A stretch of DNA of 64,000 nt from Patescibacteria group bacterium. GTDB taxonomy: Bacteria; Patescibacteriota; Microgenomatia; UBA8517. Position 1 is the stretch's first letter. The number at the start of each line of letters is the position of its first letter. Both the position numbers and the translations under genes were made by a program. The stretch covers positions 84,091 to 148,090 of the forward strand of contig DASVCV010000002.1 in the NCBI GenBank assembly GCA_036381415.1, written 5' to 3'. Below are positions 10,757 through 33,720 of the stretch, one piece after another. The notes under the pieces are model-generated. The model was given only the letters and a program-made list of their open reading frames with translations. It did no database searches and was not told the origin of the DNA.

Positions 10757-12922
10757 ATGGCTCAACAGGTAAAGAAAAAAGCAGCAATGGTAATGACGGT
10801 CACTAAAGACCGTGAAGTGCCATTGGAAAGAATCCGAAATATTGGGATTATTGCACATATTGATGCAGGAAAGACTACTACAACTGAGCGTATTCTTTTT
10901 GAAACTGGAAAGACATATAAAAGGGGTTCAGTTGATGAGGGAACTACAGTTACTGACTGGATGGAGCAGGAAAGAGAAAGAGGAATTACAATTGTTTCTG
11001 CTGCAATTACAACCTTCTGGGACTTAAAGGAAAAATCTTCAGTAGATGATGGACACTACAGAATTAATATTATTGATACTCCTGGACACATTGATTTTAC
11101 TGCTGAGGTGGAGCGTTCACTTCGAGTTTTAGATGGAGCTGTAATGGTGTTTGATGGAAGAACTGGAGTGGAGTCTCAGTCTGAAACAGTATGGAGACAG
11201 GCTGATAAATATAAAGTTCCAAGAATCTGCATTTTAAATAAACTTAATTTGATTGGTGCTGATTATGAAGGGTCAATCAAATCAATTAGGGAAAGACTGG
11301 GAGCAAATGCAGCTCCTATTCAAATGCCAATTGGACTTGAACATGAACTTCATGGAGTTGTTGATCTAATAAAAATGAAGGCATTTACTTATAAGAGTGT
11401 TGATGACAATAAATTAACTGAAGAAGAGATTCCATCTGACATGCTTGACCATGCTAAGGAATTGAGAGGTCAGCTTATTGAAGCAATTGCAGATTTTGAT
11501 GATGAACTTCTAAATAAATACTTGGAAGGGGTGGAACCAACTGAAGTTGAAATAAAGAAGGCAATTAGAGCTGGAGTAATTAAAGGAAAGTTTTTCCCAA
11601 TATTGGGAGGAGATAATAGAAGCGCAACAGTGCAGCTTCTTTTAAATTCAGTTGTTGAGTATCTTCCATCCCCTATTGATTTGCCTAATGTTGGTGGGGT
11701 AAATCCAAAAACAGGTGAAAAGGTAGAAAGAGAGAGAAAACCAGAAGCACCATTTTGTGCACTAGCTTTTAAGGTAATGACAGATCCTCATGTAGGACGT
11801 TTGGTTTATTTTAGAATTTATTCTGGAAAACTTACTAAAGGGCAGGGAATCTACAATGCTACAAAACAAAAGTATGAAAGAATTGGAAAGATAGTGCTAC
11901 TTCATGCAGATCAAAGAGAATTAATTGATACAGCATTTGCTGGAGAAATTGTTGCTTGTGTGGGAGTAAAAGATACTACAACTGGAGATACTTTGTGTGA
12001 TCCAGAGCACCCAATAGTTCTTGAGTCAATATCATTCCCAGAACCTGTTATTTCACTTGCAATTGAACCTGCAACAAAGAGTGATCAGGAGAAAATGGGA
12101 ATTGCACTTTCTAAATTATCTGATGAAGATCCAACATTCCGTGTAAAGAGTAATCCAGAAACTGGGCAAACAATTATTTCAGGAATGGGAGAACTCCAAC
12201 TTGAAGTTCTAGTTGACCGTATGAAGAGAGAGTTTAATGTTGTAGCAACAACTGGAGCTCCTCAGGTTGCTTACAAAGAAACTATTAAGAAGAATGCAGA
12301 AGGAGAAGGAAAGTATATTAGACAAACTGGAGGTAGAGGACAGTATGGACACTGTTGGCTTAGGATTGAGCCAAGAGGAAGAGGGGAAGGATTTGAGTTT
12401 AAGAGTGCTATAAAAGGAGGAGCAATTCCTCAGGAGTTTATAGCTCCAATTGAAAAGGGAGTTAAGGAGAAACTGGAAGGTGGAATATTAGCTGGATTTC
12501 CATTGGTTGATGTATCAGTAACAGTTTTTGATGGATCTTACCATGATGTAGATTCTAGTGAAATTGCATTTAAGATTGCAGGCTCCATGGCAGTGGAAGC
12601 AGCGGCCCGTAAAGCTGATATGGTCTTACTTGAGCCAATTGTACAAGTTGAAGTTTCAACACCTTCTGAATTTATGGGAGATATTATTGGAAGCCTTTCC
12701 AGTAAGCGTGCACAAATACTTGGAACAGAAGAAAAAGGTGGACTTACCTTTATTAAAGCAACTGCACCTCTTGCTGAATTATCAGGATATGCAACTGCAT
12801 TAAGATCAATTTCTCAGGGAAGAGCAAATGCGTACATTGAACCATCCCATTATGAGGAAGTACCAAAGAATATTACTGAGCAAATAGTTGCAAAGAGTGG
12901 AAAAGCCCAGGCAGCTGTCTAA
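10757..12922 (+). CDS. fusA: elongation factor G
   Basis: AHIDAGKTT, DTPGH, NKxD-like GTPase motifs, 721 aa. Confidence 0.96.
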   Translation: MAQQVKKKAAMVMTVTKDREVPLERIRNIGIIAHIDAGKTTTTERILFETGKTYKRGSVDEGTTVTDWMEQERERGITIVSAAITTFWDLKEKSSVDDGHYRINIIDTPGHIDFTAEVERSLRVLDGAVMVFDGRTGVESQSETVWRQADKYKVPRICILNKLNLIGADYEGSIKSIRERLGANAAPIQMPIGLEHELHGVVDLIKMKAFTYKSVDDNKLTEEEIPSDMLDHAKELRGQLIEAIADFDDELLNKYLEGVEPTEVEIKKAIRAGVIKGKFFPILGGDNRSATVQLLLNSVVEYLPSPIDLPNVGGVNPKTGEKVERERKPEAPFCALAFKVMTDPHVGRLVYFRIYSGKLTKGQGIYNATKQKYERIGKIVLLHADQRELIDTAFAGEIVACVGVKDTTTGDTLCDPEHPIVLESISFPEPVISLAIEPATKSDQEKMGIALSKLSDEDPTFRVKSNPETGQTIISGMGELQLEVLVDRMKREFNVVATTGAPQVAYKETIKKNAEGEGKYIRQTGGRGQYGHCWLRIEPRGRGEGFEFKSAIKGGAIPQEFIAPIEKGVKEKLEGGILAGFPLVDVSVTVFDGSYHDVDSSEIAFKIAGSMAVEAAARKADMVLLEPIVQVEVSTPSEFMGDIIGSLSSKRAQILGTEEKGGLTFIKATAPLAELSGYATALRSISQGRANAYIEPSHYEEVPKNITEQIVAKSGKAQAAV

Positions 12923-31610: not shown

Positions 31611-32141
31611 ATGTTTGAACGGATTCGCGGCTATCTTAATAGAGGGAAAGATAAACATGCAGGCTTAAAAGAATTTGAATGGAATGTAGAAGAGGCAAGA
31701 TCTTTCCTAAGCGAGTTTGTGTATTTTTACTTTAAACAAAATCAGGCAGATTTGGAATATTACCGGTTGATAGGTAATGAAGTAACTCAAATACACAACA
31801 GAGAAGTTGATTTGTCTAAAGATGAGGAATTGGTGGAGTGGTTTATTAGAAAATTAGGTCCAAATGTCTATTTTGGCAATTACAGACTTTCTTTTAGGGC
31901 AGCTCTAGAAGATTTTAGCGATCATGAGCAAATTAATATCCCAATTCCATTTCCAAGGTGTGCCCCATTTGGCAGAATAGGGGCAAAAGGATTGACTGAA
32001 GTTGATTATGCAAGAGTTGAGGAAGATGTAAGAGGAGTATTGGGGGAAGAATTGAGAAATGTAATTGGATTTGATGAAAATTTGACTAATGAGTTTTCTC
32101 AAATGATGAGTTTTGGAAAGAAGCAGTTTCCAAAGAAATAA
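31611..32141 (+). CDS. hypothetical protein co-located with r-protein operon (9 nt after rpsI)
   Basis: 176-aa ORF, acidic, no recognisable motif. Confidence 0.5.
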   Translation: MFERIRGYLNRGKDKHAGLKEFEWNVEEARSFLSEFVYFYFKQNQADLEYYRLIGNEVTQIHNREVDLSKDEELVEWFIRKLGPNVYFGNYRLSFRAALEDFSDHEQINIPIPFPRCAPFGRIGAKGLTEVDYARVEEDVRGVLGEELRNVIGFDENLTNEFSQMMSFGKKQFPKK

Positions 32142-32200
32142 ATATTTGCTTAGCTTCAGCTTCAATATAAGACTTGTATCTGTTAAAATATAAACACTTT

Positions 32201-32273
32201 CAGAGCGTAGCGTAGATGGTAGCGCGCCACTATGGGGTAGTGGAGGTCGTGAGTTCGAATCTCACCGCTCTGA
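32201..32273 (+). tRNA. tRNA-Pro (anticodon GGG), CCA not encoded
   Basis: cloverleaf folded by eye: acceptor CAGAGCG/CGCTCTG, D-stem GCGT/GCGC, anticodon stem CCACT/AGTGG with loop aTGGGGt, T-arm GTGAG-TTCGAAT-CTCAC. Confidence 0.8.
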
Positions 32274-32309
32274 CTATAGGCATTTATAATATTTTCTTCG
32301 GGTAATATA

Positions 32310-32336
32310 TTGACTTCGTTGTTTTTTCGGTATAGT
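32310..32336 (+). promoter_or_regulatory. promoter TTGACT-15nt-TATAGT; predicted TSS a few nt before ATG 32349 (near-leaderless)
   Basis: read directly. Confidence 0.4.
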
Positions 32337-32348
32337 CTTAAATTAGAT

Positions 32349-33206
32349 ATGTACCCTGTCCATTGTTTTTACTGTAATAAGATATTTTATCGTTCTTTGG
32401 GAAGAATTAATGAGAGTGGAAAGGAAGGATGGAAATCTTATTGTTCAGAAGAATGCCAATATAAATCTAAAACAACTTCAATTATTCTGAAATGCCAGAG
32501 GGTGGGTTGTAATAAAAAAATTAGAAGGGCGCCAGCTGAATTGTCGAGAAATAATGGCGCTTATTGTTCACGCACCTGTGCTGCAATTGTTAATAATGTG
32601 AAGTATCCGAATAGACATAAATTGGCGATTGTAAAGAAGTGTTCTTATTGTGGTAAAGATTTTACTAGGAGGAAAAAATATTGTTCTGTTAATTGCCAAC
32701 ACAAGGGTGCTGTAATTGGTAAGGAATTTATACTAAACCAAATAAAAGAGTTTGTTAAAAGAGAAGGTCGAATTCCTATGAAGAGGGAGTTTTATCACTA
32801 TCATGCTGTAAGAGGAAGATTTGGTACATGGAATAATGCAATTAAAGCTGCAGGGTTTGAACCAAACCCTGTAATGTTTGCTAAAAAGTACGTAGCTAAA
32901 GATGGACATAGGTGTGATTCTTTAGCTGAAAAGATTATTGATGATTGGCTTTACAAAAGACATATTAATCACAAGAGAAGTTTTCCATATCCTGGAAATA
33001 GAAAATTTACTGCAGATTTTGTGATTAAGGATTACTGGGTAGAATTTTTTGGATTGCATGGAGAGCTTAAAAGGTATGATTTGCTAATGAAGAGAAAATT
33101 GAGATTGGTTAGAAAGAATAAAATTAAATTAATAGAGATTTATCCAAAAGATTTATTTCCAAAAGGGCACTTGGAAGAAAGGTTGGGTTTTTTACTTAAG
33201 GGTTGA
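32349..33206 (+). CDS. multi-zinc-finger protein (3x CxxC...YCSxxC, FCS/MYM-like) with C-terminal DUF559/Vsr-like restriction-endonuclease fold
   Basis: CFYCNKIF..YCSEEC; CQRVGCNKKI..YCSRTC; CSYCGKDF..YCSVNC; C-terminus ADFVIKDYWVEFFGLHG...LIEIYPKDL resembles DUF559 core; ORF-track TTG start 32310 coincides with the -35 box so ATG 32349 preferred. Confidence 0.55.
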   Translation: MYPVHCFYCNKIFYRSLGRINESGKEGWKSYCSEECQYKSKTTSIILKCQRVGCNKKIRRAPAELSRNNGAYCSRTCAAIVNNVKYPNRHKLAIVKKCSYCGKDFTRRKKYCSVNCQHKGAVIGKEFILNQIKEFVKREGRIPMKREFYHYHAVRGRFGTWNNAIKAAGFEPNPVMFAKKYVAKDGHRCDSLAEKIIDDWLYKRHINHKRSFPYPGNRKFTADFVIKDYWVEFFGLHGELKRYDLLMKRKLRLVRKNKIKLIEIYPKDLFPKGHLEERLGFLLKG

Positions 33207-33647
33207 GAGCCATGTGTGTACTAAATAGATTGTTGTGATTGAAGTTACTACTGTTACACACTGCCAATAGATTTGAAGTACAAACCAAATTGAATCATTA
33301 TGAAATACTTGTCTAAAGGGAAGTGTTTCTATGGGGTTTCTATTTTTACTTGAGAATTGCTGGTTGAACCAGTAGATTGTTTCTCCAACACTTCTTACTA
33401 ACCAGAAAATTGAAAGTGTAAGTAGAAAAAGAATCCAACTATTAAGGTATAGAAGAAAGGCAGAGACTATTGTCCAGAATAGTCCAAATACTACTCCATC
33501 TGCCCAAACAAACCCTCCAATAGGGTAAATAAGAAAGGCTAATCCAAATGAGTTATTTTTGTCTTTTGTGTTGTGGAGTGACTTTAAAAAACAAAATGCA
33601 GAGAAAAGACCGTAAATAATAACTGTTAGTTTTTGTACTTCATCCAT
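33192..33647 (-). CDS. hypothetical integral membrane protein
   Basis: 151 aa, 4 hydrophobic spans. Confidence 0.5.
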   Translation of the reverse strand: MDEVQKLTVIIYGLFSAFCFLKSLHNTKDKNNSFGLAFLIYPIGGFVWADGVVFGLFWTIVSAFLLYLNSWILFLLTLSIFWLVRSVGETIYWFNQQFSSKNRNPIETLPFRQVFHNDSIWFVLQIYWQCVTVVTSITTIYLVHTWLSTLK

Positions 33648-33720
33648 ATTTGATAATTCTAATCTATTTTTGTTTTTTGTTCACCTTGTTTTTTACTAAA
33701 GGGTGTGCTAAAAGTATTTG

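Follow-up and report, generated by a model that had tools for sequence, protein, structure and literature searches.

To our knowledge, free-standing homing endonucleases are known almost solely from phages and organelles, where they are transient. T4 SegB, a free-standing homing endonuclease encoded in a tRNA gene cluster, has a 27-bp site that takes in the T-psi-C stem-loop motif (PMC2330249). The EDxHD family, which includes I-Bth0305I and phage Hef, also has free-standing members, and I-Bth0305I carries N-terminal NUMOD/HTH motifs (PMC3239194). We analysed a window (the whole stretch of DNA under study, 64 000 nucleotides) from a Patescibacteria group bacterium, in which a tRNA-Pro(GGG) gene is directly followed by a gene for a predicted modular nuclease. 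Compared with the class of free-standing homing endonucleases, the family to which this gene belongs agrees in architecture and position and in its presence/absence pattern, and differs in horizontal spread. The features of the locus are:

32201..32274, + strand: tRNA-Pro(GGG) gene, an ARAGORN call whose MFE fold is a cloverleaf
32311..32337, + strand: candidate promoter TTGACT-15 nt-TATAGT, read from the sequence
32349..33206, + strand: predicted nuclease CDS, 285 aa plus stop, from the ORF list
32349..32714, + strand: residues 1-122, three predicted Cys4 treble-clef modules, from Cys conservation and zf-FCS matches in relatives
32715..32864, + strand: residues 123-172, HEAR (PF18780), including FGTWNNAIKAAGF, from Pfam
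32874..33203, + strand: residues 176-285, predicted Vsr-like/EDxHD-like domain of restriction-endonuclease fold
33192-33647, - strand: antisense hydrophobic ORF, 151 aa, from the ORF list

The 285-aa reading frame and the antisense membrane-protein gene given in the first-pass annotation are both present in the ORF list, and its tRNA is real as well, except that ARAGORN ends it at 32274 rather than 32273. This tRNA has a canonical D-loop and T-loop, and CCA is not encoded. A longer nuclease ORF from a TTG start at 32310 is possible, while the public annotation has a shorter, 269-aa form that would drop the first CxxC; since at least 90% of relatives keep this CxxC, the ATG at 32349 is a better start than that of the 269-aa form. 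A conserved operon with the flanking ORFs was rejected, since these are not kept across 80 loci: the upstream 176-aa ORF has a homolog in none of them and the antisense membrane ORF in only one (L009), and neither matches anything in Pfam, NCBIfam or PADLOC.

The N-terminal part had been described as three tandem CxxC-x(15-20)-YCSxxC modules of FCS/MYM type. Three modules are indeed there (C6-x2-C9-x22-C32-x3-C36, C49-x4-C54-x18-C73-x3-C77 and C98-x2-C101-x10-C112-x3-C116), repeating three times a YCS signature and a pattern of the C-x2-C...C-x3-C type, with Cys residues that are invariant or at least 90% conserved among 28 relatives; the proposed spacing does not hold, the spacers being 22, 18 and 10 residues long and module 2 beginning with CxxxxC. 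The FCS/MYM identity stands at the family level, where Pfam zf-FCS (PF06467) matches eight of the 28 members singly (best E = 9.8e-7) and weaker matches are to L24e in two members and to TRASH_ZMYM4 in one, but the window protein itself falls below threshold, with no zf-FCS match at E ≤ 1 in Pfam and only zf-MYND at E = 0.25. By their Cys pattern the modules are predicted members of the TRASH/FCS/MYM treble-clef class, and the array of three probably binds nucleic acid. Conservation along the protein is lowest in this region (31-41% identity), and in 11 genomes an HTH-like N-terminus replaces it, with HEAR, the nuclease domain and the tRNA neighbour retained. Module swapping of such kind is typical of homing endonucleases.

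The middle segment with FGTWNNAIKAAGF, called conserved in the first-pass annotation and left unnamed there, is the Pfam homing-endonuclease-associated repeat (HEAR, or HNH_repeat, PF18780), a module found in association with homing endonucleases. It is matched at residues 125-171 with E = 5.3e-13 and 49.5 bits against a gathering cut-off of 26. The match recurs in all 28 relatives, and R141, P143 and W161 are invariant in 74 copies.

The C-terminus (ADFVIKDYWVEFFGLHG...LIEIYPKDL, a motif that occurs as quoted, as does FGTWNNAIKAAGF) had been matched to a Vsr/DUF559 core, an assignment that holds for the fold and not for HMM or profile similarity. At the sequence level, attempts to assign the domain to Vsr, DUF559 or a solved structure failed: a family-profile search of the PDB gave no sequence match, Vsr (PF03852) had no Pfam or NCBIfam match at E ≤ 1 and a probability of 0.6% in hhalign against E. 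coli Vsr, and DUF559 (PF04480) had no HMM match. Fold comparison alone worked. AlphaFold2 modelled the 285-aa protein with a mean pLDDT of 85, and the domain has a Vsr fold, the closest Vsr-like catalytic fold being 3r3p (I-Bth0305I) and the best structural matches being DNA enzymes (I-Bth0305I, Vsr and TnsA). The candidate active site consists of E194 (helix 1), D223 (strand 2), E232 (strand 3) and D244 and K250 (helix 2), kept in 73-74 of the 74 intact copies apart from D244, which is kept in 68. Other invariant residues of the domain are D185, D190, S191, D198, H208 (strand 1) and Y214. D223 and D244 are plausible equivalents of Vsr D51 and D97, and residue 237, the expected site of Vsr H69 or the EDxHD His, is variable. 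Set against the E-D-x-H-D motif (as defined in PMC3239194), E194 and D223 are invariant, D244 nearly so, and the invariant His, H208, lies elsewhere. No Cys/His Zn ligands occur in the domain, and the ORFs listed up to about 5 kb away include no dcm partner. Judged by these residues, the candidate acidic/lysine active site of the Vsr-like domain is intact.

The 285-aa protein is thus, from its sequence and model, a predicted modular nuclease with three Zn modules, HEAR and a Vsr-like PD-(D/E)xK domain. The earlier domain calls (Cys modules, Vsr-like core) were largely right and a selfish-nuclease ancestry is supported, while the island or defence-element biology mostly is not. The FCS/MYM-type spacing had also been called rare in bacteria; the gene is not rare in this lineage, with 668 homologs in a large Patescibacteria family, the best 120 of the 668 being almost all 267-307 aa long, and a layout of zinc fingers with a Vsr-like nuclease is common in phages.

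The tRNA-Pro(GGG) gene is directly upstream of the homologous gene in all 73 assessable loci (56 on the same strand, 17 divergent), which span Microgenomates, WWE3 and Parcubacteria. RecA adjoins the pair in many Microgenomates; the tRNA linkage is independent of RecA or ribosomal-protein context, and holds in Parcubacteria without such context. In some loci a terminator separates the tRNA from the nuclease gene, which places the link in the DNA itself and not solely in the transcript. With RecA controlled, tRNA divergence tracks nuclease divergence (partial Mantel r = 0.20, 5/2000 permutations), a small effect; with the nuclease controlled, it does not track RecA (r = 0.03). The pairing appears undescribed: literature on HEAR, CPR tRNAs and Patescibacteria homing endonucleases yielded no description of a tRNA-Pro/nuclease pair or of the remodelled tRNA.

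This remodelling affects the D-loop/T-loop elbow of about one-third of the linked tRNAs, which have T-loops GGCGGAA, GGCAGUA or AGCGUUA where UUCGAAU is expected and a D-loop without G18G19. The T-psi-C/GG elbow design is near-universal in tRNAs. Standard tRNA finders miss the remodelled forms (12 of 73 here, of which the Rfam tRNA model with default filters recovered one), so that annotations of these genomes may be short of tRNA-Pro(GGG). An apparent lack of the tRNA at 13 loci was rejected as ARAGORN false negatives arising from non-canonical T-loops. By inspection, T-loop type does not correlate with protein architecture or tRNA orientation. A scan of metagenomes for empty sites used a tRNA pattern that was not CPR-specific; 91 of its 120 matches were high-GC contigs of other bacteria (83 canonical tRNAs and eight non-tRNA) and serve as a negative control only.

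The TTGACT-15-TATAGT promoter credited to the gene is present as a sequence, with a -10 that ends 12 nt before the ATG and no Shine-Dalgarno (SD) sequence, but taken alone it is indistinguishable from chance; this AT-rich stretch has about as many promoter-like matches as chance predicts (nine found against 8.4 expected), and the candidate's 15-nt spacer is outside the range of the promoter scanner. Relatives have either a -10-like hexamer whose end is 5-8 nt from the start codon or a gap of 1-22 nt between tRNA and ORF, and no more than three of 81 have an SD sequence; this spacing and the scarcity of SD point to leaderless expression across the family. At least 16 loci have the start codon within 1-22 nt of the tRNA end, and co-transcription there is therefore obligatory.

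Nuclease divergence correlates with that of RecA (Mantel r = 0.57) and no pair is anomalously similar; the nuclease evolves much faster, at a mean identity of 46% against 68% for RecA. Identical proteins, from 23-24 contigs of different samples, always occur in one context, and a test for horizontal spread (incongruence, identical copies in different contexts) gave no sign of recent mobility. Only two of 80 copies are degenerate and 97% are intact. Classical homing cycles predict more decay and a patchier distribution. Inheritance is mainly vertical and the pair is also stable within populations, which makes it a resident of long standing that may be partly domesticated. The mobility proposed for the gene fares poorly here: each of the 73 assessable loci has the gene in the same position, and its divergence follows that of RecA.

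Absence is found in a few close relatives. The gene is present in L073 and absent from L148 and L185, whose RecA is 92-93% identical to that of L073; homology stops exactly at the tRNA 3′ end, and L148 and L185 have the same remodelled tRNA without the nuclease. L117, L172 and L192 have no nuclease between the tRNA and S9. We found no filled/empty site pair with matching downstream flanks, the L073 contig ending 150 bp past the gene, and rejected L120 as a clean empty site because a serine-recombinase element fills its tRNA 3′ flank, with the gene for a 512-aa serine recombinase abutting the 3′ end of tRNA-Pro(GGG). Separately, we observe that the tRNA-Pro 3′ flank is a rearrangement hot spot.

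The viral relatives are HEAR plus nuclease proteins encoded in tRNA clusters among HNH endonuclease genes, and they match PHROGs annotated as homing or HNH endonucleases. One viral contig (L081) has the same layout, with 42 nt between the gene and an upstream tRNA whose anticodon is UGG (Pro); the variable arm of this tRNA is atypically long, and its Pro identity is taken from the anticodon only. Sequenced phages and plasmids contain no full-length relatives. Among viral structures in BFVD, 77 match at E ≤ 1e-3, many of them zinc-finger plus DUF559/Vsr-like proteins of similar length.

We favour the reading, to which we give a little under an even chance, that the gene encodes a SegB-like, free-standing homing-type endonuclease that is resident at the tRNA-Pro gene and inherited with it, and is expressed from a leaderless mRNA. 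Architecture, fold, conserved residues, tRNA linkage, mode of inheritance, the presence/absence pattern and the start-codon spacing are observed here; we infer that the protein is an active nuclease, that it acts on DNA rather than RNA, that its target is the tRNA gene and that it homes. HEAR, the conserved candidate active site, the front-end swaps, the viral relatives, the tRNA linkage, inheritance as a unit, the presence/absence pattern and the SegB precedent support this reading; it is weakened by the lack of any sign of recent mobility, the RecA correlation, the small partial Mantel effect, the atypical viral tRNA, the small number of degenerate copies, the missing full-length phage and plasmid relatives, the unconserved His, the lack of similarity to Vsr, DUF559 or PDB entries, and the want of a clean filled/empty pair. 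A rival reading is a housekeeping nuclease domesticated from a former homing type, acting for example in DNA repair or the start of recombination with the neighbouring RecA/RecX, whose tRNA linkage would persist only because its leaderless mRNA depends on the promoter and 3′ processing of the tRNA. Mainly vertical inheritance with one context per identical protein, the high share of intact copies with an invariant candidate active site, obligatory co-transcription in the loci with the shortest spacing, and adjacency of RecA in many Microgenomates all speak for it. The linkage, however, survives tRNA inversion (the 17 divergent loci) and persists in loci with a terminator and an own promoter, so expression coupling cannot be its general reason; it also holds in Parcubacteria without RecA nearby, the gene is dispensable in L148, L185 and the L117/L172/L192 lineage, and it evolves faster than RecA. 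We consider domestication of this kind unlikely on balance, while giving it serious weight.

An RNA-directed function, in which the protein would bind or process tRNA-Pro(GGG) or its precursor with the Vsr-like fold used as in RAP/FASTK, would explain why a single tRNA is paired and why remodelled elbows are tolerated; the pairing with a tRNA of Pro anticodon both in CPR genomes and in the viral contig, the unusual elbows, and the weak L24e matches, which tie the Zn modules to a class of RNA-binding folds, point the same way. It is nevertheless improbable, given that the best structural matches are DNA enzymes, the full candidate set of metal-binding acidic residues is conserved, some clades have an HTH-like N-terminus, HEAR is a homing-endonuclease-associated module, L148 and L185 manage without the protein while having the same remodelled tRNA, and an RNA enzyme acting in trans needs no adjacency to its substrate gene in both orientations. 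PADLOC PDC-S69 matches residues 177-269 with E = 3.5e-12, at the same position in its 289-residue profile, and would make the protein an anti-phage defence nuclease with an incidental tRNA neighbourhood. The match covers the nuclease domain only, PDC-S69 is an unvalidated candidate on which we found no literature, the gene sits among housekeeping genes (ribosomal proteins, RecA, RNase Y) and not in a defence island, no partner gene exists among the unconserved flanking ORFs, and linkage to one tRNA gene at every assessable locus would go unexplained; a defence role is accordingly one we think very improbable. Least credible, and close to dismissal, is the model of the first-pass annotation, in which tRNA adjacency means that the gene came as cargo when a genomic island or selfish element inserted itself at tRNA-Pro. 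The L120 serine recombinase does show that tRNA-Pro(GGG) can serve as an integration site, and its 3′ flank rearranges often. An integrated island was rejected all the same: as that annotation had itself observed, there is no integrase, here among the ORFs, and no repeat of the tRNA 3′ end, here anywhere in the 64-kb window; GC is flat (0.33-0.35 at the locus against 0.35-0.39 in the flanks), the "island" would amount to a single 0.86-kb gene, and relatives at the phylum level have the same gene at that place, with a divergence that follows RecA. The evidence supports selfish-nuclease ancestry in the form of a homing-endonuclease-type gene bound to a tRNA gene, not the cargo of an integrated element.

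Under the preferred homing reading, a swappable DNA-binding front end (Zn modules or HTH) would be joined through the HEAR helical module to the Vsr-like PD-(D/E)xK domain, and expression of the enzyme would be low. Its mRNA would be leaderless, arising either at a promoter directly before the start codon, the source proposed for the window, or through 3′ processing of the tRNA precursor. In genomes without the nuclease gene the enzyme would recognize DNA at the tRNA-Pro gene or immediately past it, and repair of the break would copy the tRNA plus nuclease unit into the recipient genome. The resident copy would be protected by the insertion at the tRNA 3′ end, which disrupts the site, and possibly also by a changed tRNA sequence. 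A bolder version holds that homing endonucleases specific for the tRNA-Pro(GGG) gene have been entrenched since before the Microgenomates/Parcubacteria split and have co-evolved with their target, that the repeated elbow remodelling is immunity to cleavage by a SegB-like reader of the T-arm, by which a core translation RNA was reshaped, and that the mRNA is made leaderless by tRNA 3′ processing in many lineages; as a whole we regard this as quite unlikely.

If the homing reading is right, a homing-type nuclease is the stable, near-universal chromosomal partner of one tRNA across a very large radiation of minimal genomes, and a natural case of long-term coexistence with, or domestication of, a selfish nuclease. 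The family would then supply compact zinc-module nucleases of natural origin whose target is defined and highly conserved, and might explain both the tRNA-Pro 3′ rearrangement hot spot and the aberrant tRNA-Pro(GGG) elbows. Should the protein instead be a domesticated repair enzyme or an RNA enzyme, it would still be an uncharacterized, highly conserved gene in gene-poor organisms.

Several known systems resemble the protein or its parts. MYM/FCS (PF06467) and TRASH modules share the C-x2-C...C-x3-C treble-clef pattern with a (Y/F)CS signature, whereas the present modules are bacterial, fused to a nuclease, spaced by 10-22 residues and sub-threshold in the window protein. With Vsr and DUF559 the SxxE helix, the strand-2 Asp and the next hydrophobic strand align by eye; the present domain appears to lack the Vsr zinc site and the H64/H69 pair, and the protein differs from both in its large DNA-binding extensions. 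The phage zinc-finger/DUF559-type endonucleases in BFVD match over the whole length (240-320 residues), with tandem fingers and a restriction-endonuclease-like C-terminus, but they have mostly C2H2 or other fingers, are without HEAR and uncharacterized, and are not known for pairing with tRNA-Pro. I-Bth0305I and the EDxHD family likewise combine an N-terminal DNA-binding region with a C-terminal Vsr-like nuclease and conserve the helix-1 Glu and strand-2 Asp. The present family has no detectable sequence similarity to them, does not keep the motif His at its expected position, has invariant E232 (strand 3), K250 (helix 2) and H208 (strand 1), and replaces NUMOD/HTH with three Zn modules and HEAR; its gene is passed on vertically in bacterial chromosomes, not carried by an intron or intein, and it neighbours a tRNA gene rather than recA as an interrupted host gene. 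SegB offers a parallel in position, a free-standing nuclease gene among tRNA genes, as in the viral relatives of the present family. It is a GIY-YIG enzyme of unrelated fold from a phage gene that spreads in co-infections, whereas the predicted nuclease gene described here resides stably in the chromosome, coupled to one specific tRNA.

In the window, the nuclease gene is the first ORF after tRNA-Pro(GGG). The features are as follows.

31611-32141: 176-aa ORF between S9 and the tRNA gene
32201-32274, forward strand: tRNA-Pro(GGG), called by ARAGORN
32311-32337: hexamers TTGACT-15-TATAGT, candidate promoter
32349 (ATG) to 33206 (stop), forward strand: nuclease ORF, 285 aa, next after tRNA-Pro(GGG)
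33192-33647: hydrophobic ORF of 151 aa, antisense to the nuclease gene

The host is a Patescibacteria (CPR) bacterium, and the nuclease gene is flanked by housekeeping genes, with S13, S11, S4, RpoA, L17, L13 and S9 upstream and RecA, RecX, RNase Y and HU downstream. All protein motifs quoted in the first-pass annotation were found in the window, as was the antisense membrane-protein gene that it placed after the nuclease gene, at 33192-33647. An identical protein is publicly annotated as 269 aa; position 32349 is the better start because the shorter form loses the first CxxC, whose conservation is at least 90%. In relatives the nuclease gene is followed by recA or by another small ORF (an 81-aa ORF or a C39 peptidase), so the slot holding the antisense ORF is variable. 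This ORF is bracketed by a 17-nt direct repeat at 33187-33203 and 33688-33704 (GTTTTTTACTTAAGGGT / GTTTTTTACTAAAGGGT, 16 of 17 positions identical), copy 1 overlapping the nuclease gene's final codons, copy 2 lying just before recA; the repeat could be due to chance. For the 176-aa ORF, Pfam, NCBIfam and PADLOC gave no match, and none of the 80 related loci has a homolog; between S9 and the tRNA, relatives carry other genes instead (ABC transporter, NUDIX, PMT glycosyltransferase).

By ARAGORN and tblastn, tRNA-Pro(GGG) lies directly upstream of the nuclease gene in 60 of these 80 loci. The loci apparently without it were false negatives: twelve ARAGORN-negative loci with at least 400 bp of upstream sequence, and also L002, have a GGG-anticodon tRNA whose cloverleaf is perfect and whose T-loop is non-canonical. 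This brings the linkage to 73 of 73 assessable loci; in the other seven, upstream sequence is missing or N-masked. The two genes share a strand in 56 loci and are divergent in 17, with a spacer usually below 110 nt. The pair is kept with the RecA block downstream or inverted upstream and with the ribosomal block on either side; in Parcubacteria it is kept with neither block nearby. Several loci have a terminator-like hairpin between tRNA and nuclease gene. Co-transcription cannot explain the linkage in general, given that some loci have an inverted tRNA and others a terminator between the two genes.

The elbow is remodelled in at least 23 of the linked tRNA-Pro(GGG) genes: the T-loop reads GGCGGAA, GGCAGUA or AGCGUUA rather than UUCGAAU, always together with a D-loop lacking G18G19 (AGATAGxxA or AAAAGTA). 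Examples are listed here; about 20 other loci are similar.

L003:5839-5912, remodelled tRNA-Pro(GGG)
L022:5837-5909, remodelled tRNA-Pro(GGG)
L048:5856-5926, minus strand, remodelled tRNA-Pro(GGG)

All four stems are intact, and of three remodelled tRNAs that were folded, two gave a cloverleaf or near-cloverleaf as the MFE structure and the third did so only partly. Twelve were missed by ARAGORN, and Rfam default filters missed 11 of those 12. The same remodelling occurs in L148, L185, L117, L172, L192 and L100, and in an independent metagenome sample of 120 tRNA loci it was confined to low-GC, CPR-like contigs. The tRNA-Pro(GGG) of the window has canonical D- and T-loops. It is speculation that the remodelled elbow is an escape from a nuclease that reads the T-arm.

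Pairwise identities of nuclease and RecA are correlated across 29 loci (Mantel r = 0.57, reached by none of 2000 permutations), the nuclease evolving faster (mean identity 46% versus 68% for RecA), and that comparison contained no anomalously similar nuclease pairs. Wherever identical proteins recur, on 23-24 contigs from different samples, their gene neighbours are unchanged, and no full-length relatives were found among sequenced phages and plasmids. For these reasons we conclude that descent is chiefly vertical and shows no trace of recent transposition. A genomic-island model for this locus is effectively excluded. One outlier pair, L004 and L057, is 84% identical in RecA and just 38% in the nuclease; one of the two genes could have been replaced in one lineage.

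With RecA controlled, tRNA-Pro(GGG) divergence follows that of the nuclease (partial r = 0.20, 5 of 2000 permutations), and with the nuclease controlled it does not track RecA (r = 0.03), giving modest support for inheritance of tRNA and nuclease gene as a unit. This partial correlation and the variation in gene presence point away from a purely vertical picture. Loci without the gene came from the independent sample of 120. L148 and L185, whose RecA is 92-93% identical to that of the gene-bearing L073 (the median among gene-bearing loci is 68%), have the same remodelled tRNA as L073 without the nuclease gene. The three align over RecA, the spacer and the whole tRNA, and diverge exactly at the tRNA 3′ end, where the L073 nuclease ORF begins about 5 nt on; the downstream genes differ in all three. 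In L117, L172 and L192, just 96-510 bp separate the tRNA 3′ end from S9, a position held by the nuclease gene in L064, their nearest gene-bearing relative. Given the variable genes and this breakpoint, the 3′ flank of tRNA-Pro(GGG) is a rearrangement hot spot. L117, L172 and L192 are independent metagenome contigs of related organisms, and each of them stops 10-68 bp upstream of the remodelled tRNA, which suggests an assembly break from a repeat or from strain-level variation there. On another metagenome contig, a 512-aa large serine recombinase gene (L120:10910-12448, plus strand) overlaps the 3′ end of tRNA-Pro(GGG) (12429-12503, minus strand), with RecA on the opposite side of the tRNA; this tRNA gene appears to serve an integrative element as attachment site. 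The nuclease gene was not found within 12 kb beyond the recombinase. L210 has the same RecA/tRNA arrangement, also without the nuclease gene.

The first-pass annotation described three tandem CxxC-x(15-20)-YCSxxC modules of FCS/MYM type. Three modules there are, with spacings of 10-22 and a second module that opens CxxxxC.

Module 1: C6-x2-C9-x22-C32-x3-C36
Module 2: C49-x4-C54-x18-C73-x3-C77
Module 3: C98-x2-C101-x10-C112-x3-C116

In the window protein they had no significant domain match. Scanned singly, 8 of 28 orthologues match zf-FCS (MYM-type; best E = 1e-6), with weak L24e and TRASH matches among the 28, and on this basis the modules are assigned by sequence to the TRASH/FCS treble-clef class, as the FCS/MYM guess had anticipated. 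The middle segment matches Pfam PF18780 (homing endonuclease associated repeat, HEAR; E = 5.3e-13, 49.5 bits, cut-off 26), making the protein a HEAR family member by Pfam's threshold. Three proteins of 964-1313 aa in the representative library (P0121, P0122 and P0123) are made of 17-22 tandem HEAR repeats.

No sequence relative of the C-terminal domain was found in Pfam, NCBIfam or PDB, even with a family profile, and hhalign against Vsr was not significant. In an AlphaFold2 model (mean pLDDT 85) the domain runs alpha-beta-beta-beta-alpha-beta, as in restriction-endonuclease-like nucleases. D185, D190, S191, E194, D198, H208, Y214, D223, Y243 and K250 are invariant in 74 intact copies from different species; E232 is kept in 73 and D244 in 68. 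Going by secondary-structure order, E194 (helix 1), D223 (strand 2) and E232 (strand 3) would occupy the canonical PD-(D/E)xK positions, and K250 and D244 would lie in the following helix, like D97 of Vsr. Identity is higher in the nuclease (59%) and HEAR (52%) than in the zinc modules (31-41%).

The window protein has 668 homologs at E <= 1e-3, and nearly all of the best 120 have lengths of 267-307 aa and share 50-64% identity with it. Sources include Levy-, Woese-, Roizman-, Collier-, Shapiro-, Ames-, Gottesman- and Blackburnbacteria, WWE3 and several Parcubacteria. An exhaustive search with HEAR plus nuclease gave 2627 cluster representatives at E <= 1e-3, of which 89 reached E <= 1e-30. 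Across the 80 reference genomes there is a single copy per locus set, intact except in L062 (nuclease core deleted in frame) and L063 (disrupted). Most copies have three zinc modules, some two and eleven none; all eleven keep HEAR and nuclease. Ten of these, from Gottesmanbacteria and Parcubacteria, have a helix-turn-helix-like N-terminus (HTH_23 at E = 0.004 in one), and the other, L075 (173 aa), has no N-terminal domain. A 551-aa protein annotated as DUF2510 domain-containing (WP_237707993; L092:3380-5035, Hoyosella subflava plasmid pAS9A-2) shares the HEAR end and nuclease domain (residues 158-284, at 40% identity); the nuclease module thus occurs outside Patescibacteria and phages too.

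L081, a viral contig of 179 kb, carries a gene for a 30%-identical protein that has the zinc-ribbon, HEAR and nuclease layout of the window protein. The gene lies inside a tRNA cluster, starting 42 nt after a tRNA whose anticodon is UGG (Pro). At 87 nt, with A37 and a long variable arm, that tRNA (L081:4623-4709) is atypical of Pro tRNAs, and the ORF upstream of it (L081:3011-4039) has an HNH motif and an RNA-ligase-like KxDG motif (EKMDGEN). Viral relatives in L082 and L083 are HEAR plus nuclease proteins, the latter adjoining a tRNA cluster and an HNH endonuclease gene. Phage relatives match PHROGs annotated as homing or HNH endonucleases, and 77 viral structures match at E <= 1e-3, many of them zinc-finger plus DUF559/Vsr-like proteins of similar length.

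The combination of a swappable DNA-binding front end, HEAR and a Vsr-like nuclease closest to I-Bth0305I is the build of a free-standing homing endonuclease. With this build, the phage relatives among HNH genes in tRNA clusters, the viral structure matches and the T4 SegB precedent, we tentatively favour, at a little under an even chance, a homing-type endonuclease that resides at the tRNA-Pro(GGG) gene, is inherited with it and is now largely vertical. The main rival, which we consider clearly less probable, holds that the gene has been fully domesticated for a host function and that its expression is coupled to the tRNA. At least 16 loci have the start codon 1-22 nt past the tRNA, so there the gene is necessarily transcribed with it, and tRNA 3′-end cleavage would leave a leaderless mRNA. 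Many other loci carry a -10-like hexamer that stops 5-8 nt short of the start codon. The first-pass annotation gave the window gene its own promoter and an almost leaderless mRNA; leaderlessness is supported as a family trait (Shine-Dalgarno in only 3 of 81), and TTGACT-15-TATAGT is a plausible candidate promoter in an AT-rich stretch where promoter-like matches are as frequent as chance predicts. An RNA-directed role, like that of RAP/FASTK proteins with a Vsr-like fold, seems improbable, and a role in defence slightly more so, the latter being suggested by a PADLOC PDC-S69 match on the nuclease domain (E = 3.5e-12).

Our literature searches turned up no description of the tRNA-Pro(GGG)-nuclease pair or of the remodelled tRNA. 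Sequence does not place the protein in Vsr or DUF559. Its fold is like that of EDxHD enzymes, with a different set of conserved residues; the His that belongs to the Vsr/EDxHD motif (PMC3239194) is not conserved at its expected place, residue 237. A direct precedent is T4 SegB, a free-standing homing endonuclease within a tRNA cluster, whose 27-bp site includes the T-psi-C stem-loop motif and which drives joint inheritance of itself and neighbouring tRNA genes (PMC2330249). The kind is known; what is new is the domain combination in this proposed homing-type Vsr-like nuclease and its remarkably stable genomic niche.
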